A stretch of 64,000 bases of DNA from Giardia intestinalis. Lineage: Eukaryota. Positions within the stretch are counted from its first letter, which is position 1. Every line of letters starts with the position of its first letter. The position numbers were made by a program, and so were the translations under genes. Below the pieces are notes generated by a model that was not told the origin of the DNA, did not search any database, and was given only the letters and a program-made list of their open reading frames with translations. Shown one piece after another: positions 20,339-45,024 of the stretch. The stretch lies in NCBI GenBank assembly GCA_000002435.2, contig CM018793.1. One strand, written 5' to 3'.

Positions 20339-21577
20339 TTACTCGAAAAGCGAACACAGTGCAGCATAGTTAGGGTCATCTGCATTCCTTTCGGCGGCGC
20401 CAGGTTCAAAGATAACCGCCTTAAAGACGTCCTTCTTCACTCTGAAGGGGCCGTCGAGCATAGAAAGTAGCGCGGAGCAGCATGCCTCGCGAAATGCATC
20501 ATCTGTGTGGGAGAGGCCTGTCCTGAACCCGGCGACGACATGGGCCATGTTCTCATCGAACATGAGGGTGTTCCACACGGAGTGCACTGCTGCATTTGAG
20601 GAGCATATGCGCCCGAATGCCAAGGCTGCTGTACTTGCAACATGTGTATTGAAATCACCAAACAAGATGATAAGGTTGCGTGGCAGAGTCCCTGTACTGA
20701 AGCTTAGTGATGACGAACTATCAAATAGAATAACAGAGTCAATGAACGTGTTCATCTCAACGACAGAATCCTCTACCAGGTGTAGCCCGTAATCCGAAGA
20801 CACTATAAATATATCGTATGTGCGTTTGAAGAGATCTAAAAACGTGTTTGGAGCAGTATCGATTATAAGGTCGAAGGCATCCCTACATGTTACTGAGATG
20901 TTGTAGACCGAGGAGACAACATATTTGAGGATCGTTATCTGCTCTTGAACTGCTTTGTGCTCTGGAAGGGTGGTGTGTACCACCCTTTTATTCTCTAACT
21001 GAGCTTGGAGACGAGTGAACTTATTCAAGATAGAACCGATATAGTCTGTGCCAGCACGCACTATGTTCTTTTCGTACCCTTCTAAGAGCTTCGAGACACA
21101 CGAAATCTCATACGTGATTTTCCACAGGCGTGGAAAGTTGGTCGCGTGGTTCAGAAGAAACACTAGTATGGTATCTAACTGCTCCAGGGGCAAAGACTCC
21201 AGCGTGGACACTCCGGCTCGCGTGTCTACAAGCTTCGCAAGAGCAAAAACAACCATATCTGTCCAGTGATGATCGGCTTCGTTATTCTTACCATTCACAC
21301 ACTCCTCAAAGAACTCTGTGATGCACGAAAATAGCCGCATGTCCTTCCAAAAGGCATGCGCAGCTAAGGGTATAGATGTGTGATTAGCAAGTTGATTGAA
21401 CGCCTCAGTGAGCGCCTCTGGTGTACTCTTTCCTTCGCGATACTTTGTTATTTCGGAGCAAAATTTGGTGTAGAAGAATTCATCGCAGGGGACAGAAAAC
21501 ATGGTGGGGTCCTGCGGTCGTGGGTTTTCTTGTGCATTGCGACCATAGAGAAAGTCCAGGGTATCTCTCCAGCTCAT
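20339..21577 (-). CDS. Hypothetical protein.
   Basis: Track ORF 20339..21637. If the start is the ATG at 21637, the N-terminus overlaps the divergent kleisin gene by 49 nt. The in-frame ATG at 21577 (MSWRDTLDFLY...) avoids the overlap. No domain recognised. Confidence 0.45.
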   Translation of the reverse strand: MSWRDTLDFLYGRNAQENPRPQDPTMFSVPCDEFFYTKFCSEITKYREGKSTPEALTEAFNQLANHTSIPLAAHAFWKDMRLFSCITEFFEECVNGKNNEADHHWTDMVVFALAKLVDTRAGVSTLESLPLEQLDTILVFLLNHATNFPRLWKITYEISCVSKLLEGYEKNIVRAGTDYIGSILNKFTRLQAQLENKRVVHTTLPEHKAVQEQITILKYVVSSVYNISVTCRDAFDLIIDTAPNTFLDLFKRTYDIFIVSSDYGLHLVEDSVVEMNTFIDSVILFDSSSSLSFSTGTLPRNLIILFGDFNTHVASTAALAFGRICSSNAAVHSVWNTLMFDENMAHVVAGFRTGLSHTDDAFREACCSALLSMLDGPFRVKKDVFKAVIFEPGAAERNADDPNYAALCSLFE

Positions 21578-21588
21578 TATTTTCAAAA

Positions 21589-23061
21589 ATGAGCCAGCTT
21601 GAGCAAATTCTAGTAGACTGTCTTGCGCTCGCTGCACAGGACAAAATCACTGCCAAGAACTCCTGGTCTCTTCAGCTGCTGGAGAACATAGATGGCATCA
21701 TTGATTCCATGCGGCAATCGTGCGATTTTGTCTATGTATCTTCGGCCATCTCTGCGTCTGCAAAGATCTATGCAGGAAGAGTGGACTCCCTATATACTAT
21801 GGTGCGTCACACTGCTGCTGCAGGACGCGTGCATGACCACTCTCCCATGGATCTTGAGGGTGAAACAGATGCCAACTCAAGCCAGGCGCGCAGGCCCCTG
21901 GATAAGCATTCAAAGGCCACCAAGCGGGTTCCTTACAAGAATGCTGCATTAACCAAGGACTTCTCTGCCCTACAGATGAAGCCTGCCTCACGTGACGCGC
22001 TTTTCCGCTTGGACCCCCTTTACTCCCAGTTGCAGATGCAGGAGCTCACATGCACCACTAAATCGCTCCCAATCTTTGGCATGTACGCCAAACCAGCCAC
22101 CTTGTCGGTCTCCCAAGCTCTTTCTGACCGCATACTAGCCAATGTGCGACCTATAACCACACACATGATTCAAGCTGCACAGGCCTCTCTAATCGCAACA
22201 CCACTTGTAGCGCCATCTGGATCACTTGATAGATCACTTATTATGGTGAATCCTGCGATGCAGAGCCAATATGGCAACTTTTCTTCCAGGATAGAGTCTG
22301 CGGTCCACTCTGTTTCAGATTCTCTCGTACTGTCTCAGAAGCTACAGGATGATGTGGCTCGTTACGTAGAGACCTCTGATAACCTCTCTGTCACCGAAGA
22401 TCTCATAGCTGTTTCTGGCAAGAATGCACTCTGGAGTGCAGCAAAACTTCCCAAACCCCCCAAGAAGCAGCGAGTTGCTCGGCGAGCTACTTCACAGGCG
22501 TGTAAGAAGTCTCGGGCCCCCAATCCCCCTCGAGCGCCCCGCGCGCCCCGGTCGTCTTCTTTCGCTGCCCCTAAGCTGACTGATCATGCACCTTTAGAAT
22601 CTGTTGAGATTGCCTTAAGCGACTGCAGCATCAACTTAGAAGCCGATGAACTGGACTTTGATCCGCCACACACTCAAGCACTTGCAAGTTCACGCCGAGC
22701 TACACTAGACATTTCAGACTTGCACGGAAGCTCGCTTGCAGAATCGGCTCCGCCGTTCGATAACTCCGAGTACATTCTCAACATGGTCAAGACAGAAAGT
22801 CTCATTGATTCTACTCCCACAAAAGTTAACATAGCACAGCTAAAGGGGGCTATTCATAACGAGCTTACTCACCAGACCACGCTAGCAGAGGTTTTTGCTC
22901 GGCTTTCTCACATGAAGCGTCTTCCTAATGACATTACGAACAAGTCTGCAGCTGCTATTTCACTTGTCTTTAGCGCGCTTCTGCACTTGGCATCTGAAGG
23001 GCACGTTGGATTAGAATGTCGTCAAGATGACATTAGTATTATTCCTCAGCAAGCAATCTAG
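21589..23061 (+). CDS. Kleisin, condensin non-SMC subunit CAP-H/Brn1-like.
   Basis: The N-terminal kleisin motif resembles CAP-H: KITAKNSWSLQLLENIDGII ... ISASAKIYAGRVDSLYTMV (compare CAP-H KITTKNAFGLHLID ... ASTKIYAVRVDAVH). The C-terminus has a winged-helix-like stretch, TLAEVFARLSHMKRLPNDITNKSAAAISLVFSALLHLASEGHVGLECRQDDISII. The track ORF starts at 21421, an upstream alternative start. The first plausible ATG is 21589 (MSQLEQILVD...). Confidence 0.5.
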   Translation: MSQLEQILVDCLALAAQDKITAKNSWSLQLLENIDGIIDSMRQSCDFVYVSSAISASAKIYAGRVDSLYTMVRHTAAAGRVHDHSPMDLEGETDANSSQARRPLDKHSKATKRVPYKNAALTKDFSALQMKPASRDALFRLDPLYSQLQMQELTCTTKSLPIFGMYAKPATLSVSQALSDRILANVRPITTHMIQAAQASLIATPLVAPSGSLDRSLIMVNPAMQSQYGNFSSRIESAVHSVSDSLVLSQKLQDDVARYVETSDNLSVTEDLIAVSGKNALWSAAKLPKPPKKQRVARRATSQACKKSRAPNPPRAPRAPRSSSFAAPKLTDHAPLESVEIALSDCSINLEADELDFDPPHTQALASSRRATLDISDLHGSSLAESAPPFDNSEYILNMVKTESLIDSTPTKVNIAQLKGAIHNELTHQTTLAEVFARLSHMKRLPNDITNKSAAAISLVFSALLHLASEGHVGLECRQDDISIIPQQAI

Positions 23062-24920: not shown

Positions 24921-24978
24921 GTGTGATAGTGTGATAATGGGTGATAGGGTGATAGAAGGTGATAGAGGGTGATATGCA
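24921..24978. repeat. Degenerate tandem repeat of GGTGATAG[AG][AG], six to seven units.
   Basis: The sequence reads gtgtgatagtgtgataatgggtgatagggtgatagaaggtgatagagggtgatatgcac. It fills the 67-bp spacer between the VSP stop and the start-less VSP copy. Confidence 0.7.
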
Positions 24979-26672
24979 CAGCAGCCAGTAATGGAGTGTG
25001 TACTACTTGTAAGACAGATAACCAGTACATATTCCAGAACCCTGCTGCACCATCAGAGAAGGGAAGGGAGTGTATACTGTGCTCTGATACTACACAGAGA
25101 GACGAGGTCATGGGAGTGGATAACTGTCTCAAGTGTACGGCACCAGCTAATAATAAGGGGGTAGCTAAGTGCACTGCTTGCACAGAGGGACACTTCCTAC
25201 ACACAGATGGGACGTGCCAGGCATGCGGCACCGGTTGCTCCGAGTGCACGTCCAACACAGTGTGCACGCACTGCATGCCTGGAAGGTACCTGAAAACTGG
25301 TGGCAGCTGTGTCGATGGGAGCGGGAGCACCTGTGGTGAAAAGAAGTACCCCGATCCAACTACCAGAGAGTGCAAGGCATGCCCCGAAGCTTGCAGGGTG
25401 TGCGCGTATGACGATGTCCTCCAGCAGCCCGTATGCAGCGAGTGCGACAGTGGACAAGCAAAGAATCTTCTCAAGAAGAAGGTCGACGGGACAGCGGAGT
25501 GCGTCGATGAGAACGGATGTCCGACAGGTGAAACGCACTTTGTTGATAAAACTGCTGGAACAAAGTGTCTTCCGTGTGGTGATGAATCTAAAGGAGTGGC
25601 TAATTGTGAAACCTGTAGTGCTGCACAACAATGCACTAAGTGCCTTCCGGGCTTCTTTGAGACTAATCCGACAACATGCACCGATTGTACAGGACATTGC
25701 GCAGAGTGCGGAACAGCGGGTCAAATTGATACATGTACAAAGTGCCTTCCCGGGTTCTTCCTAAAGTCCAGCGGAGGAAAAGAGTGCGTTCTTTGCGGAG
25801 ATAGCCAAAAGGGCGGCATCGATGGATGTGATGTTTGTGAGGGAACAGAAGACGCCCTCAAGTGCACAAAGTGCAAGGTGAACTACAGACCCAGTGGAGA
25901 ACCTTCAACTGGGGTCACATGTACAAAGGCCTGTGAAGATGATACTGCGTGTGGTGGGACAGCAGGGGCCTGCGATGCTATAGTGATCGACAATGATGGA
26001 AAGGAGCTTCATTACTGTTCATTCTGTGGAGATAGTTCACAAGCTCCCATTAATGGAAAGTGTGTGGCTTCTGGTAGTTACGATAGTAATCATTGTGCTA
26101 AAGGTGTCTGTACACAGTGCACCAACAACTACTTCTTATACATGGGTGGCTGCTATAGTGTATCAGCTCAACCTGGTAACCTCATGTGCAAGACAGCAGG
26201 TAATAATGGGATATGCACAGAGGCGGCCAACAATAAGTACTTCATAGTCCCAGAGGCAAAGCCTACTCAGCAGTCCGTGCTAGCCTGTGGGAACCCCCTG
26301 GGCACACTAGTAGGCACTGGTGGTACCGCTAAGGCATACGTGGGGGTGGATGGCTGCTCCCAGTGTAAAGCGCCAACACAGATAGACACTCTTGGTATGA
26401 CCCCTGCTATATGTACTGCCTGTGACAGTGATAGGAAGCCCAACAGGGACGGCAGTGGGTGTGTGCTGTGCTCTGTGGGTGATTGCAAGAGCTGTGTGGT
26501 GGATGGTGTGTGTGGGGAGTGCAACAGTGGCTTCAGTCTAGAGGGTGGCAAGTGTGTGTCCTCTGGCACCAACAGGAGCGGGCTCTCCACGGGGGCCATC
26601 GCGGGCATCTCCGTGGCTGTGGTCGCTGTCGTGGGGGGCCTCGTGGGCTTCCTCTGCAGGGGGAAGGCGTAG
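24966..26672 (+). pseudogene. VSP copy truncated at the 5' end; no ATG and no signal peptide.
   Basis: The frame is opened by TAG at 24963. The track 'M' at 24969 is a GTG. The first in-frame ATG, at about 25113, gives a start (MGVDNCLKCTAP...) with no signal peptide. The rest has full VSP architecture: CXXC repeats, a GGCY motif, a TM helix and CRGKA, with polyA signal AGTAAAC after the stop. Confidence 0.65.
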
Positions 26673-26689
26673 GTGGCATCCACTTAGGT

Positions 26690-26696: not shown

Positions 26697-26914
26697 GCAT
26701 CCATGTGCCGCATCACCTCAACCGGTACACCTCACAGTGCCTCTGCCTGGACAATGGAAGAGCTACGGCGGGCTGCTCTAGCCGTTCCGTGCGCCTCTGG
26801 TAAGGGTGACGCCCCAGGCCAGCACGACTCCCTGGTATCTGAGACAGAGTGCGAGTGGCCGCTTATTCCCATCCCCCAGTCCACTCTCACCCAACATAGT
26901 CAAAATGTCCTATT

Positions 26915-27014
26915 CTTCGCGCCCTCGCGCCCGCACGTGCCCGTGGCGTAATTGGATAGCGCGCCTGACTACGGATCAGGAGGTTGCAGGTTCAAGTCCT
27001 GCCGGGTACGCTTT
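26915..27014 (+). repeat. Duplicated module of 100 bp, copy 1: a 22-nt GC-rich leader, tRNA-Arg and CTTT.
   Basis: It is identical to 35908..36007. The shared upstream 22-mer is CTTCGCGCCCTCGCGCCCGCAC. The tRNA is identical in the two copies. The flanks diverge outside this unit. Confidence 0.85.
26937..27010 (+). tRNA. tRNA-Arg, anticodon ACG.
   Basis: I folded it by hand. Acceptor stem GTGCCCG/CGGGTAC with one G-U pair. D-arm GCGT-AATTGGATA-GCGC. Anticodon stem CCTGA/TCAGG with loop CTACGGA (U33, anticodon ACG, G37). Variable loop AGGTT. T-arm GCAGG-TTCAAGT-CCTGC. Discriminator G. Length 74 nt. A TTTT run follows at 27012-27015. Confidence 0.9.
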
Positions 27015-27015
27015 T

Positions 27016-27519
27016 ATGCCCGCCCCCAACTTTGCGGCCGCCGTCGAAGACCTCGCCCGCACGGCCTCTCTGCCCTCCCCGCCACTGGCCACGCTCTGGA
27101 TTCGCCTCAATGAGCTTCGTGCCCAGCTGCAGGCGTCGGCCCCTGAGCTAGCAAAGACAGATGTCCAGTATCTTCTAGAGAAGCTTCAATATATTGAAGA
27201 TGATATCAAGGCGCTGGAAGACCAGGAGCGCATGCATCCAGCCTCGGAAATTGCTGACACGCAGGCTTTCGACCTCTCTGCAGCCCATCGGTCAGCAGAC
27301 GAAACGATCGCTTTGGCGCTCCACACAACCTCTGCGCTCCATGATCAGACAGGGCACATAAACGTCTTGCTAGAAAAAATCTCAAATCTAGGGTCCAAAG
27401 TAACCGTCGGCCGACACTTGCTCTCTAGCCTTCTGCGCTCCGAACAGGCCGGCGCAGTCATCATACCTCTGCTTCTCATAGTTATCTCATTAGTATATTT
27501 ACTTATGAAGCTACTTTGA
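27016..27519 (+). CDS. Tail-anchored coiled-coil protein, Q-SNARE-like.
   Basis: A 167-aa ORF whose ATG lies 5 nt after the tRNA. It has a heptad-patterned segment with a central Q (ALHDQTGHINVLLEKISNLGSKV) and a single C-terminal TM helix (AVIIPLLLIVISLVYLLMKLL). The track ORF 26806..27519 reads through the tRNA and is an artefact. Confidence 0.5.
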   Translation: MPAPNFAAAVEDLARTASLPSPPLATLWIRLNELRAQLQASAPELAKTDVQYLLEKLQYIEDDIKALEDQERMHPASEIADTQAFDLSAAHRSADETIALALHTTSALHDQTGHINVLLEKISNLGSKVTVGRHLLSSLLRSEQAGAVIIPLLLIVISLVYLLMKLL

Positions 27520-27549: not shown

Positions 27550-28533
27550 TCACGCTGCCTTGACACGGAATCTCCCCACAACTATAGCATGATTCCTGTG
27601 GAACTCTCCTATGTCCAGCTGCTCCTTGCACTTAAAGTCGTGCTCGCGCAATGTCTCTATTTCACGCGCAAAGACGGCCTCCGGCTTCAGCGTCGAGTCG
27701 ACAGAGCTTGCCTTGATAGATATCAGCATGCCTCCATTGGCCTTCAAATAGTACCTCGCATTCTCTGCGACAATCCGTGCCTGGTCCGGCTGTGCCACAT
27801 CAGAAAAGATGCAATCGACCTCCGGGACTATCATACGATACTTGTAAGGATGCCTTGCGTCAGCAATGATGGGGTAAACGTTCGTTCTAGCCTTAGCAAC
27901 CTCAAGTAAATCGCGGCCAGACCTCTGCGAAAACTCGACGGCATAAACGGCGCCGGTAGGCCCAACTATGTCCGAAACGTGCGAGACAGTGGTCCCCGAT
28001 GCAGCGCCAAGGTAGAGGACCTTCGCCCCTGGCTTTATTGGCATGTCCAACACGTTGAGGCGGACGGCCGCGCCCAGCTTGGAGCGGAACGGGTTCCACT
28101 CACGATATTCTATCTTGGACTCGGTCCCCTCGACTGAAATGCGCTTCTCTCCGTATACGGCCACGCCTGGTGCAAGAGACTTCGTCACTAAAACATCGCC
28201 CCGTCCATGGGATATAAATATTCCATCATACTTGGGATGAGGCTTGACCATGGTCTTTGCTCCTCCCTTGAACCCGCCGCCAGGGCCCCCGGGTCCTCCA
28301 CGGCCGCCAGGCCCATCCCTTGGTCCGCGGCGATCACCCCGATCGGGGCCTCCGGGGGGGCCTGAGCCGCGCCTGTCCCCGAAGCCGCGCCCCCCGTCAC
28401 CTCTCTTGAAGTCCGGTCTCTCTGGCCTACGGTCTCCGAAGCTCCGGCCACTGTCTCGGCGATCGTTGCCCGGCCCGCGGCCTCCCGGCCCGTCACGGCC
28501 CCCGCGCCCGCTGTTTCGATAGTCTGTACCCAT
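27550..28533 (-). CDS. NOP1: Fibrillarin, a box C/D snoRNP 2'-O-methyltransferase.
   Basis: An N-terminal RGG/GAR domain ([14 protein letters not shown]...[10 protein letters not shown]) is followed by the conserved fibrillarin methyltransferase core: [55 protein letters not shown] and [12 protein letters not shown]. Confidence 0.95.
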
Positions 28534-28626: not shown

Positions 28627-28639
28627 TACTAACACACAG
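28627..28639 (+). other. 3' terminal motif of a spliceosomal intron, a fused branch point and acceptor (TACTAACACACAG). It is the 3' half of a split, trans-spliced intron.
   Basis: The match to the Giardia intron 3' consensus [AC]CTRAC[AC]CACAG is exact. The dynein reading frame opens immediately after it, following a TAA at 28630-28632. There is no upstream exon or ATG. Only about 100 nt of A/T-rich spacer separates it from the divergent fibrillarin start. Confidence 0.7.
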
Positions 28640-31052
28640 CCACTGAAGATAAGGAGGAGGTCATCCGGCAGGCGAATGCCACGAAGGCACGCCTAGATCT
28701 TGCTAATCGACTCGTTAACGGTCTTGCATCTGAAAAGGAACGTTGGAAACAATCGGTTACCGATCTCCAGAGTCGCGACGGAACTCTGGTTGGAGACGTT
28801 CTTATAACGGCAGCCTTCATATCATATTCTGGGCCATTCAATCGCCAATTCAGGACAGAGCTTCTCTCCAAGTGGATCAGCAGGGCGAAGGAGCTCAAGA
28901 TTCCCATGCAAGAAAACTTTGATCCGTTGCAGCTTTTGACCAACGATGCCCTGATTGCACGCTGGAATAATGACAAGCTTCCCACTGACAGGGTTTCACT
29001 CGAGAACGCTTCCATCTTTTCAACCGCGGAGCGCTGGCCGCTTATCATTGATCCTCAGCTGCAGGGAATTGCGTGGATAAAGGCCAGAGAGGAGCGCCGG
29101 AAGGAAGAAGAGCGTCGCTTCATGGAATTGGAGGCCGAATATCAGGCGAAGAAGGCCACGTTTGAAGCGGACCGAGAGCGCCGAATGCGGGAAGCCGAGG
29201 AGAAAGGGGAGAAGTTTGTAGACGACGTTGTGTTGGAGAGGCCCCGCCCAAGTGATGAGAAGCTTGGCCGCCTTCAAGTTGTTCGCTTTTCCCAGAACAA
29301 GTGGCTCGATGCCATTGAGAAGGCTGTCCAGGATGGTGATACTGTCATCATCGAGAACATTCACGAGACTATTGATGCCGTGCTCAATCCTCTTTTGGGA
29401 CGTAACATAATCAAGAGGGGCCGCTCTAAGTTCATCAAGTTTGGAGACAAAGAAGTTGAGTATGACGATAACTTTCGTCTCTATATCCAGACCAAGATGC
29501 CGAATCCCCACTATTCGCCAGAGATTCAGGCACAGACTACCTTGATCAATTTCACCGTCACAATCGATGGCCTGGAAGACCAGCTCCTTGCTCTGGTTGT
29601 GTCTGAGGAGCGGCCCGACCTAGAGGAACTGAAGGCTAGTCTCATGCGCCAGCAGAATGAATTTAAGATCACGCTCCAGCAGTTGGAAGAGGACCTGCTC
29701 AAGCGTCTTTCTTCGGCAACGGGAGACATTCTTGGTGACACCGATCTCATAGAGAATTTGGAGAAAACAAAGGCCACGTCATCAGAGATTTCCGAGAAGG
29801 TCAAGGAAGCCAAGATAACGGAGGAAAATATAAACAAGGCTCGGGAGCAGTACAGGCCTGTTGCAGCCCGTGCGGCTATGCTCTACTTCCTTTTGAACTC
29901 CTTGAATGTCATCGATCACTTTTATCAGTTTTCCCTCTCCGCCTTTATAACGGTCTTCTACAGGGCCATCAGGCTCTCACAGAAAAGCGAAGACGTCCAG
30001 GAGCGCGTGAACATTCTTCTGGATGCTCTCACGTTTGATATTTATTCCTATGCTGCTCGCGGCCTTTTCGAGCGGCATAAGCTCATCTTCATTTCGCAGC
30101 TCTGCTTCAACGTCCTCCGCAAGGACAACAATCTTCCTGCAAACGAATTTAACTTCTTGCTGCGCGGGACTGCCTCTGTTTCCCGTGAAAACGCGCTATC
30201 AGAGTTTATCCCCACTTCGTCTTGGAACAGTGTCGTGGGGCTTGCGGAGAGCATACCAGACATCTTTGGAAAGCTCCCTGATGACATCGAAGGCTCTGCC
30301 AAGCGCTGGAAGGAGTGGATTCAGCACGAGCAGCCAGAGCGTGAGAAGCTGCCACAGGATTGGAAGAACAGAACGAGTCTGCAGCGTCTCTGCATCATTC
30401 GTGCGTTGAGGCCTGATCGTCTTATGACCGCTATGACTGATTTTGTGAGTGAGTCGATCGGCGAAAAATACGTTGAAGCGCTGCCGTTTTCCTTCAAGAA
30501 CGTCTACGCAGACTCTAGCAAGACGGAGCCTGTGTTCTTTATCCTCTCTCCAGGCGTCGACCCGGTCAAGGACGTTGAGAGCTTGGGAAAGCAGTTAGGC
30601 TTCACTGCAGATAACGGAAAATTCAAGGCAATTTCTCTCGGTCAGGGTCAGGAGAAGTTTGCTGAAAAGGCCATGGAGGACATGGCGCAGAAAGGTGGCT
30701 GGGTGCTCCTCCAGAACATCCACCTTATGAAGATTTGGCAGGTCAAGCTAGAGAAGATGATGGAGCAGTATTGTTCCGAAACAGCGCACGACAACTTCCG
30801 TCTCTTCCTATCAGGGGAGCCGGATTCTGACCCTGCTGTAGCGTCTGTTCTCCCTGGGATTGTACAGATGTGTATTAAGGTGACCAACGAGCCCCCGCGA
30901 GGGATCAAGGCCAATATGAACAGAGCCATCGGACTATTTACACCAGACACGTTTGAAATGTGCTCCAAGGGTAACGAGTTCAAGAGTATTTTGTTTGCTC
31001 TGATCTTCTTCCATGCAATCGTCATCGAGAGACGGAAGTTCGGTCCTATAGG
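28640..31052 (+). CDS. Dynein heavy chain, internal coding piece (AAA5-AAA6 region). It has no start codon, and its C-terminal domain is absent.
   Basis: The translation runs continuously: ...TEDKEEVIRQANATKARLDLANRLVNGLASEKERWKQ...GDVLITAAFISYSGPF...RWPLIIDPQLQGIAWIK...FRLYIQTKMPNPHYSPE...GLEDQLLALVV...YQFSLSAFITVF...GLFERHKLIF...FILSPGVDP...LGQGQE...WVLLQNIHL...FRLFLSGEPD...IKVTNEPPRGIKANM...FFHAIVIERRKFGPIG. These are motifs of dynein heavy chain AAA5/AAA6. Homology stops exactly at the GTATGTT donor, and the remaining ORF tail to 31215 is not dynein-like. The upstream intron is phase 1 and the downstream intron is phase 2. Confidence 0.85.
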
Positions 31053-31059
31053 GTATGTT
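31053..31059 (+). other. 5' splice donor GTATGTT, the Giardia consensus. It marks the start of a 5' intron half of unknown extent.
   Basis: GTATGTT falls exactly where dynein homology ends (FGPIG|). No matching CTRACACACAG acceptor occurs in the 150 nt before the convergent SMC4 gene. The downstream sequence carries CAGTATGCC twice. Confidence 0.6.
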
Positions 31060-43746: not shown

Positions 43747-45024
43747 ATGCCCCTCAATCTCTACTATGCAGGTCTTTACGAGCAGTGCCTTTCGTCTATC
43801 GCAGTAGAGAAGAAGCGTGGGACCACGCACCAGCTGCTCCACACAGAGGGTCTGGCTCTGCGTGCACTCAACAGAATATCCGAGGCGATAAGCTCCTTTC
43901 TTGCATCCCAGAAGCTAGACCCCTTCGACCAGTCTACCACTCTAGAGTTGGCTAAGTGCTTCTATCTCCAAGGAAACTACCCCTCTGTTATCGCACAGTG
44001 TGATAGCATAATTTCAACAGAAGGTCGGGCGCCCTGGCTTGCACATCAACTGCGAGGATTGGCATCCTTCCGCATGGGTGACAGACATGCAGCAGAAAAA
44101 CATCTTTTTCTGGCATATGACCTTCATCCAACACTGCAAGCGAAGCAACTTATAGGAGAGCTACAGGCAGCAGCCGGCAAATCGCAAGAGGCTATAGCTA
44201 CAATGAACGATATTATAGCATTATCACCAGAGTCCATCAACGTGCTCATTGAGCTGGGACTCTTGTACGTTAAGTTGAACTCTCTAGATGATGCATTCGA
44301 ATGCTTCTCTAGAGCAGTGATAGCTGTACAAAAGCAGCTGGCATGTAGAAGCAGCATGACTCTCTCTACTCCGCAAGACTCGTTTATTTTCAGTCCGGCA
44401 TTTTTCTCTCTTGGGTACACAATTCAAGCTAAGGACCCACGGACTGCTTTGTTGAAATACAGAGTGGCAGCAAGCCTTAAAGGGGACAGCAAGGATCCGC
44501 ACATATGGGCTAATCTTACCTATGTGTTTGTCTCGTTAAGCAACTTAGAGGCCGCTCTCGTCTGTGCTACTCGTGCGTTTCAGTTGAACTCCACGTCTGA
44601 ACCTTGTAGGCGTGCCCTGGGCCACGTGTACATCTGCCTAGGTGACTACTGTAGGGCGTTCCAGATCCTTTCCCCAGCCATGGGAGACACCCGGGCATAT
44701 GAGTCCCAATGGCTACTTGGTATTGCAGCCGCGAAGCTGGGTGAACTTCGAATAGCTATGGTGTGCCTTTCAAAAGCTGCTGACGGAGGGCTTTATGCTG
44801 CATGCTTGACGGGACTCTTGATTTTTCTACAGGCCAACGACCTGACTACCGCGGCACAATTCTCCGTCAAACTCAAGGAACTGGATCCCGATAATGATGA
44901 GAATCTACGGCAAGGGAAGGCTGCTATTAAACGCTTACGCAAGCTTGTTCAAGAAGAGAATTCGACCGTGGAGGGACAGGCTGTTTCCGAAAAGAACGAG
45001 CAACTAACCACTACCGATGGCTAG
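43747..45024 (+). CDS. TPR-repeat protein.
   Basis: Repeated 34-aa helical units with the W/LG/Y/A/F/A/P pattern ([76 protein letters not shown] and others). Specific family not assigned. Confidence 0.55.

Follow-up and report, generated by a model that had tools for sequence, protein, structure and literature searches.

A stretch of 64,000 nucleotides (nt) from Giardia intestinalis (NCBI GenBank assembly GCA_000002435.2, contig CM018793.1), hereafter the window, carries a gene for tRNA-Arg(ACG) which lies directly in front of a protein-coding gene of the same strand, Qb-SNARE 2. The window encodes proteins identical to entries of G. intestinalis WB. The tRNA gene (copy 1; positions 26937 to 27010, plus strand) comprises 74 nt and ends where the original prediction had placed its end: the Rfam tRNA family RF00005 matches exactly this interval over the full model (1-71/71), with a score of 64.1 bits, equal to that of a second copy described below, against a gathering score of 29, and ARAGORN assigns the gene to arginine with the anticodon ACG (tRNA positions 34-36), calling the end at 27011, one base past the discriminator. 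The minimum-free-energy fold of the 74 nt is a cloverleaf, and the same ARAGORN-type call, arginine with anticodon ACG, was obtained at all orthologous loci. Northern probes for sitRNAs derived from tRNA-Arg(ACG) give a signal in Giardia, which indicates that the isoacceptor is expressed and does not distinguish its gene copies (PMC2577346). Among the JGI metagenome contigs, the 74-nt tRNA found no match.

The tRNA is followed by a spacer of five nucleotides (27011 to 27015, plus strand), and the junction reads GGGTACG at the tRNA end, C (27011), TTTT (27012-27015) and ATG (27016-27018); the T tract and the start codon were thus correctly read from the sequence. The spacer is the presumed termination tract of RNA polymerase III (Pol III) and, together with the A of the ATG, a possible initiator for RNA polymerase II (Pol II). 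The oligo-T tract and this A are the sole AT-rich bases at the junction. RNA structure beyond the tRNA itself was found neither in the 5′ leader nor at the junction (z-scores of -0.2 and +1.0).

The open reading frame (ORF) from 27016 to 27519 (plus strand) encodes 167 amino acids (aa) followed by a stop codon, and its product matches the annotated Qb-SNARE 2 of G. intestinalis WB (167 aa) with 100% identity, which bears out the attribution to Giardia made in the original prediction. Its C-terminal tail, AVIIPLLLIVISLVYLLMKLL, is hydrophobic, and the hydrophobic character of the last ~21 residues is kept in all four orthologs, which fits a single C-terminal transmembrane anchor; the description of a tail-anchored ORF of 167 aa therefore agrees with both the annotation and the tail. 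The Pfam V-SNARE_C match (E = 6.9e-5, 23.5 bits) lies under the gathering cutoff of 27.1. For the ortholog of Giardia muris a precomputed match to PF12352 exists, and NCBI uses the name Qb-SNARE 2 for the proteins of both species.

An older GenBank model of this gene (XP_001708538.1, GL50803_17464) comprises 204 aa instead of the 167 aa of the current one, as it starts at an in-frame upstream ATG (26905..26907, plus strand) and reads through the tRNA. In WB the frame is indeed open backwards from 27016 through the tRNA to this codon. The ATG at 26905 is absent in strain P15 and in a second G. intestinalis lineage (the B-like scaffold, see below), and the G. muris sequence has an in-frame TGA after the tRNA and before the SNARE ATG. 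The orthologs begin at the equivalent position; those of P15 and the B-like scaffold have 167 aa, like the WB protein, and that of G. muris has 162 aa. The N-termini read MPAPNFAAAVEDL in G. intestinalis and MGLDALAADVADL in G. muris. From the common N-termini, the unconserved ATG at 26905, the TGA of G. muris and the 167-aa annotation it follows that 27016 is the true start, and the corrected gene model is supported. The first 45 nt of the ORF are the best conserved block between WB and the B-like scaffold (identity of 0.91 versus 0.77 overall); a search for an additional constraint on these first codons gave synonymous identity at 11 of 15 codons, which is not clearly above the gene average.

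The adjacency of tRNA and ATG is real and conserved, and it extends to a second gene copy and to G. muris. Copy 2 of tRNA-Arg(ACG) (35930..36003, plus strand; Rfam, ARAGORN) is identical to copy 1 and lies 10 nt before the ATG of a gene of the same strand, Ankyrin repeat protein 1 (36014..38557, plus strand, 847 aa; the protein corresponds exactly to XP_001708533.1). The intervening spacer, CTTTATCGAG (36004..36013, plus strand), holds three consecutive T (T3) only. On the other side, a divergent gene for a hypothetical protein of 100 aa (GL50803_0060537; 35564..35866, minus strand) begins with AAAATG 63 nt from the tRNA, and copy 2 therefore sits in a divergent promoter gap of 147 nt. Common to both WB copies are 22 nt upstream, the whole tRNA and CTTT downstream. 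Two ACG genes appear in each of two published tRNA tables, which we take to be those of GS and WB (Text S1, PMC2723961); read in this way, both genes of the isoacceptor are positioned 5 and 10 nt before a start codon of the same strand. It had been proposed to check whether other Giardia tRNA genes abut start codons, and the outcome is divided: copy 2 does, and a tRNA-Val of G. muris does not.

The duplication boundaries between the two tRNA copies lie at -22 and at the second T-run. An origin of copy 2 from a retroposed Pol III read-through transcript was considered and dropped, as no clear target-site duplication is present and gene conversion explains the pattern. Homology between the N-termini of the ankyrin and SNARE proteins was likewise considered. 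Positions 36014-36040 and 27016-27042 are identical at 17 of 27 nt (MADAWFAAA versus MPAPNFAAA), a value equalled by three of 838 in-frame windows, and the SNARE start reaches a maximum of 13 against 28 other ORF starts. The likeness is probably a coincidence: WFxAARxGD is known as a cap motif of ankyrins, and FDAA is read in both P15 and the B-like scaffold.

The compared loci were reached via the SNARE orthologs and derive from P15 (assemblage E), from a Giardia scaffold of an ENA metagenome and from G. muris, where the SNARE ortholog was found first by a profile search and then identified by name. The scaffold is called B-like on the grounds of distance, since its SNARE ORF shares 76.8% nucleotide identity with WB, which equals the published distance between WB and GS. 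No base of the 74-nt tRNA differs between WB and assemblage E, the B-like scaffold or G. muris (100% identity). The spacer of copy 1 reads C-TTTT-ATG in WB, C-TTTC-ATG in P15 and C-TTT-ATG in the B-like scaffold. At copy 2, P15 has the same CTTTATCGAG-ATG as WB, and the B-like scaffold has CTTT-ATGCCCGCCCCCAACT-CTGAG-ATG, where ATGCCCGCCCCCAACT reproduces the SNARE ORF up to its nucleotide 16 and stands seven codons ahead of the ankyrin ATG, in the same frame.

At two duplicated loci, the G. muris genome carries this tRNA in the orientation of Qb-SNARE 2, with 24 nt between the tRNA and the start codon (CATTTCTGCTGACCGGGCAATTCC-ATG). The duplication covers 2 kb with 97% identity on two chromosomes, CM016929.1 (L005, 8485-10496) and CM016925.1 (L006, 8488-10496). 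It includes the 3′ end of an ankyrin/kinase gene, tRNA-Val(GAC), tRNA-Arg(ACG) and the complete Qb-SNARE 2, and ends within a few nucleotides after the SNARE stop codon. The gene order SNARE-fibrillarin-dynein-SMC is kept at one of the two loci. The identical tRNA upstream of the G. muris ortholog dates the pairing before the split of G. muris and G. intestinalis; published values put the average amino acid similarity of orthologs of the two species at 44.7% (PMC7641422). Copy 2 appears to be specific to G. intestinalis. The tRNA-Val, which is the sole unrelated tRNA inside the compared loci, faces the 3′ end of a gene and has no start codon behind it.

A canonical Pol III terminator, i.e., at least four T near the tRNA 3′ end, is missing at all of these loci except WB copy 1. 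T3 only was found at seven of the eight tRNA-Arg(ACG) loci (WB copy 2, both copies of P15, both copies of the B-like scaffold and the two G. muris loci), and also behind tRNA-Val (TCTTTG). WB copy 1 has no further run of four T for 1.5 kb past the junction and hence none inside the SNARE ORF. As T3 also stands behind tRNA-Val, where no ORF follows, it is probably an ordinary trailer of Giardia tRNA genes and not a designed read-through signal.

Upstream of both WB copies an identical, GC-rich flank of 22 nt, CTTCGCGCCCTCGCGCCCGCAC, was detected in pairwise and six-way alignments (26915..26936 and 35908..35929, both plus strand). Position 26915, at which the original prediction began, is exactly the start of the block common to both tRNA copies. 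Together with the tRNA 5′ end (26915-26943 and 35908-35936), the flank is composed of two degenerate tandem copies of the 5′ acceptor strand of the tRNA, GCGCCCT-C and GCGCCCG-CAC, followed by the GTGCCCG of the tRNA. A core of 16 nt, GCCCYCGCGCCCGCAC, precedes all six G. intestinalis copies, and the flank of copy 1 is identical between WB and the B-like scaffold at 20 of 22 positions, compared with an identity of ~58% at third codon positions. Upstream of the G. muris tRNA the block has no counterpart. It may represent a 5′ leader, a Pol III start region or merely a gene-conversion tract, and a T/C variant that is common to both paralogs within each assemblage points to gene conversion between the copies. 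A TATA-like element at about -30 of the tRNA, conserved across the loci, was not found.

With regard to spacing, the head-side gaps behind the two tRNA copies (5 and 10 nt) are the two smallest of the 29 counted in the window, which have a median of 63 and continue after this pair with 11, 11 and 19; the two copies are paralogs and thus not independent observations. Around copy 1 the intergenic DNA is divided into 264 nt upstream and 5 nt downstream, i.e., the tRNA is pressed toward the ATG and not centered. The median intergenic size is 81 base pairs (bp) in G. intestinalis and 37 bp in G. muris (PMC7641422). The short gaps behind the tRNAs are part of a genome-wide continuum. At other window genes, with a divergent gap of 11 nt and a tandem gap of 19 nt, the whole upstream region lies within the neighbor, so that spacing which leaves no separate promoter is normal here. 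The divergent genes at 20339-21577 (minus strand) and 21589-23061 (plus strand) have their start codons 11 nt apart (21577-21589), and the AT-rich initiator of each falls inside the first codons of the other.

Mapping of transcription start sites in WB has revealed one general promoter element, an AT-rich initiator from -5 to +5, with nothing else conserved within 150 nt; frequent variants of the initiator include ATTTTAAAATG and CTTTTAAAAAT (Tolba et al., 2013, PMC3792122). In G. muris solely an enrichment of A before the ATG was described (PMC7641422). Most genes of the window carry TTTnAAAA just before the ATG, and at the tRNA-SNARE junction CTTTTA (27011-27016) corresponds to the first six of the eleven positions of the variant CTTTTAAAAAT, the A-rich half being replaced by the ORF (TGCCC). 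The leaders of Giardia mRNAs measure 1-14 nt and the ribosomes initiate without scanning (PMC3610916), from which it follows that a translatable mRNA 5′ end must lie at the junction, in the spacer or the final bases of the tRNA gene. These properties bear out the earlier premise that any promoter or initiator of this mRNA must overlap the tRNA gene or its terminator; a separate upstream promoter would find no room. Since Giardia genes generally carry only the AT-rich initiator straddling the start site, no upstream promoter is needed here either. Compared with the accompanying choice, in which the tRNA gene either serves as promoter or is co-transcribed with the ORF, a third and plainer reading is better supported.

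According to this reading, which we favor while giving it about an even chance of being correct, two independent transcription units, tRNA and then SNARE, would be packed head to tail. Pol III, directed by the internal A and B boxes of the tRNA gene, would transcribe it and stop at the short oligo-T tract just past the discriminator base, and Pol II would start the SNARE mRNA in the same oligo-T/ATG junction, at about 27011-27016, yielding a capped transcript with a leader of 0-5 nt. These few bases would then have two roles, ending Pol III transcription and serving Pol II as a weak initiator, and compaction would have shrunk the spacer from ~24 nt to 4-5 nt. In G. muris, T3 (CATTTC) still stands apart from the AATT that directly precedes the ATG, in keeping with a later fusion of the two elements in G. 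intestinalis. The body of the tRNA need not be a promoter at all. The anatomy, conservation and duplication history of the locus are established, as are the published promoter rules; where the mRNA begins, the double role of the T tract and any contribution of open chromatin over the tRNA gene are inferred from them.

Several points weigh against two independent units. The junction is without the A-rich initiator half seen before most genes of the window, and it therefore probably makes a weak promoter at best. At the junction, a pre-initiation complex of Pol II would moreover occupy a tRNA gene whose transcription must be heavy, as the isoacceptor has only two genes. Finally, T3 is below the four or more T that are canonical for Pol III in other eukaryotes (PMC3141230), and Giardia reportedly is without C53, TFIIIC and Bdp1 (PMC3369914), so that termination at T3 is an assumption of this reading. 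The puzzle of the adjacency is nevertheless probably explained for the most part by the minimal promoters of Giardia and its extreme compaction, and not by a new mechanism.

An alternative is that the tRNA gene represents a portable promoter module, in which Pol III factors (TBP/BRF) or a nucleosome-free state recruit or admit Pol II and selection keeps an ORF directly behind each tRNA-Arg(ACG) gene. That both of these genes have a same-strand ATG 4-10 nt downstream in three lineages speaks for a module, as do the SNARE ATG and 13 further nucleotides which copy 2 of the B-like scaffold holds in frame with the ankyrin ATG, the joint duplication of tRNA and SNARE in G. muris on a 2-kb segment ending just past the SNARE stop, and the position of the tRNA at the ATG-proximal end of the intergenic region everywhere (264 versus 5, 63 versus 10 and 711 versus 24 nt). 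However, the loci, being paralogs and orthologs of one ancestral arrangement, count as about one or two independent cases, the common flanks can be put down to gene conversion between the two copies, which are separated by 9 kb, and the tRNA-Val of G. muris has no ORF start behind it. Elsewhere in eukaryotes tRNA genes tend to silence neighboring Pol II promoters, as is known from tRNA gene-mediated (tgm) silencing in yeast. A promoter module thus appears rather unlikely to us. Co-transcription with subsequent punctuation would arise by Pol III read-through of T3/T4 or from an upstream Pol II start; RNase Z would cut the tRNA-ORF precursor after G27010 and free an mRNA beginning with CUUUUAUG, whose 5-nt leader would fall in the normal range of 1-14 nt. 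The presence of T3 only at seven of eight loci and the lack of a further T4 for 1.5 kb in WB are compatible with such a precursor, degenerate terminators allow extensive read-through by human Pol III (PMC3141230), the termination subunit C53 is not detectable in Giardia (PMC3369914), and dicistronic precursors of non-coding RNA (ncRNA) and ORF do occur in this organism (PMC3510501). The 12-nt motif that marks the Giardia dicistronic units is, however, absent from the spacer, T3 also follows tRNA-Val with no ORF after it, and no initiator-like AT-rich element upstream of the tRNA is conserved across the lineages, G. muris having none within ~100 nt. An mRNA freed by RNase Z would in addition bear a 5′ monophosphate and no cap, and efficient translation in Giardia reportedly uses capped mRNA (Li and Wang 2004, cited in PMC3610916). 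Taken together, we consider the punctuation route decidedly unlikely.

A start of the mRNA upstream of the tRNA, near CAAAATG (26901-26907), would give rise either to the 204-aa protein or to an mRNA with the tRNA in a long 5′ untranslated region (UTR). It draws on the in-frame ATG at 26905, which in WB has a good A-rich context and a frame open through the tRNA, and on the original model XP_001708538.1. Neither the ATG nor its context exists in P15 or the B-like scaffold, the G. muris spacer has the in-frame TGA, the 37-aa extension is merely translated tRNA and was removed from the reference annotation, and ribosomes that do not scan could not get past the tRNA structure to an AUG ~110 nt further on. 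The comparative data on the ATG and the TGA largely refute the 204-aa model, and an upstream start is hardly credible any more. As to the broader proposition that a nuclear tRNA gene of Giardia defines the translatable 5′ end of an mRNA, be it as a copied portable promoter module or through RNase Z punctuation, we regard it as very improbable.

Among known systems the closest analogue is found in Giardia itself, where snoRNA and other ncRNA genes lie just upstream of ORFs and dicistronic precursors were demonstrated by reverse transcription PCR (Hudson et al., 2012, PMC3510501). Both arrangements place a small structured RNA directly before an ORF of the same strand with a very short spacer, here of 5 and 10 nt. 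The units of Hudson et al. are defined by a 12-nt motif at the 3′ end with the consensus TCCTTTACTCAA (PMC3510501), and a regular-expression scan of the window with [TAC]C[CA]TT[TC][ATC][CTA]T[CTA]AA gave three matches, none of them near either tRNA. They also are presumed Pol II transcripts, whereas the RNA of the present case is a tRNA, whose gene has Pol III boxes inside it and oligo-T as its trailer. With the AT-rich initiator promoters (Tolba et al., 2013, PMC3792122) the junction has in common that the ATG is within a few nucleotides of the sole AT-rich stretch, that no upstream motif is required and that a neighbor may fill the whole upstream region. It differs in possessing the T-rich half only, without the run of A before the ATG, and in having a Pol III gene as upstream neighbor, the presumed terminator of which would overlap the initiator. 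Dicistronic tRNA-mRNAs of vascular plants likewise join a nuclear tRNA to a protein gene, sometimes in synteny and with linked expression; those RNAs were detected experimentally and implicated in mRNA mobility, their spacers are longer than a few nucleotides and the tRNA is often located 3′ of the ORF (PMC8166872). The tRNA-5S genes of Yarrowia are a further analogue (PMC2566860).

In cases where a tRNA gene drives or permits transcription into the DNA directly behind it and degenerate T tracts terminate only partially, the products are ncRNAs, in contrast to the protein-coding gene at this locus. Punctuation by tRNAs is reported from mitochondria (said to go back to Ojala, Montoya and Attardi in 1981). 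There, too, the tRNA abuts the next start codon and the mRNA would have almost no leader, but the system is organellar, cap-independent and polycistronic, and Qb-SNARE 2 is a nuclear gene of an organism with capped mRNAs. Overlapping or abutting transcription units have reportedly been described for compact genomes such as those of microsporidia and nucleomorphs (Williams et al. in 2005). Extreme compaction forces control regions into neighbors in all of these genomes; the overlaps there are mainly between mRNAs. A description of a tRNA-start-codon junction in Giardia was not found in the literature searched, which included the diplomonad genome papers.

The locus amounts to a clean experiment of nature, conserved in evolution, on the sharing of a few DNA bases by Pol III and Pol II, in an organism whose transcription apparatus is stripped down: TFIIIC, Bdp1 and C53 are not detectable and the promoters are reduced to the initiator. 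If the oligo-T tract is both terminator and initiator, it would illustrate how far compaction can merge control elements, and it would make it understandable that annotation pipelines formerly extended the SNARE gene across the tRNA. Should the tRNA drive or punctuate the mRNA after all, this would constitute a new mode of nuclear mRNA 5′-end formation and, in the case of punctuation, a nuclear version of tRNA punctuation. The raw reads of the oligo-capping start-site sequencing of WB are deposited at DDBJ (DRA001089), and the two tRNA-Arg(ACG) loci are the first places to look in these existing data. Three features retain interest: a Pol III stop that apparently overlaps a Pol II start, trailers with T3 only in an organism without the known termination subunits, and the tRNA copy with the SNARE ATG in front of a different gene.

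Upstream of copy 1 the next gene encodes a VSP ending with CRGKA (24969-26672). AGTAAAC at 26680-26686, a few nucleotides past the VSP stop codon (26670-26672), corresponds to the Giardia polyadenylation signal, and the ~250 nt between this signal and the tRNA are poorly conserved between assemblages, with many indels. Downstream of Qb-SNARE 2 lies fibrillarin (27550-28533, minus strand). As the stop codons of the two genes (27519 and 27550) are 30 nt apart, the 3′ UTRs must overlap the opposite gene. Overlaps of 9-22 nt at the 3′ ends of convergent or neighboring ORFs were observed at 31207-31215, 38536-38557 and 45011-45024.

Beside fibrillarin, a fragment of a dynein heavy chain (28640-31052, plus strand) resembles an internal exon of a gene subject to trans-splicing, a phenomenon already known for dynein genes of Giardia. 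The fragment is preceded by a Giardia branch-point/3′ splice site, ACTAACACACAG (28628-28639), and followed by a GTATGT 5′ splice site (31053-31058) and by the 12-nt motif for processing of ncRNAs and trans-introns, TCCTTTATTCAA (31140-31151). In the dynein ortholog of G. muris (locus L005, exon from 11549), ctaacacgcag is likewise situated just before the exon.

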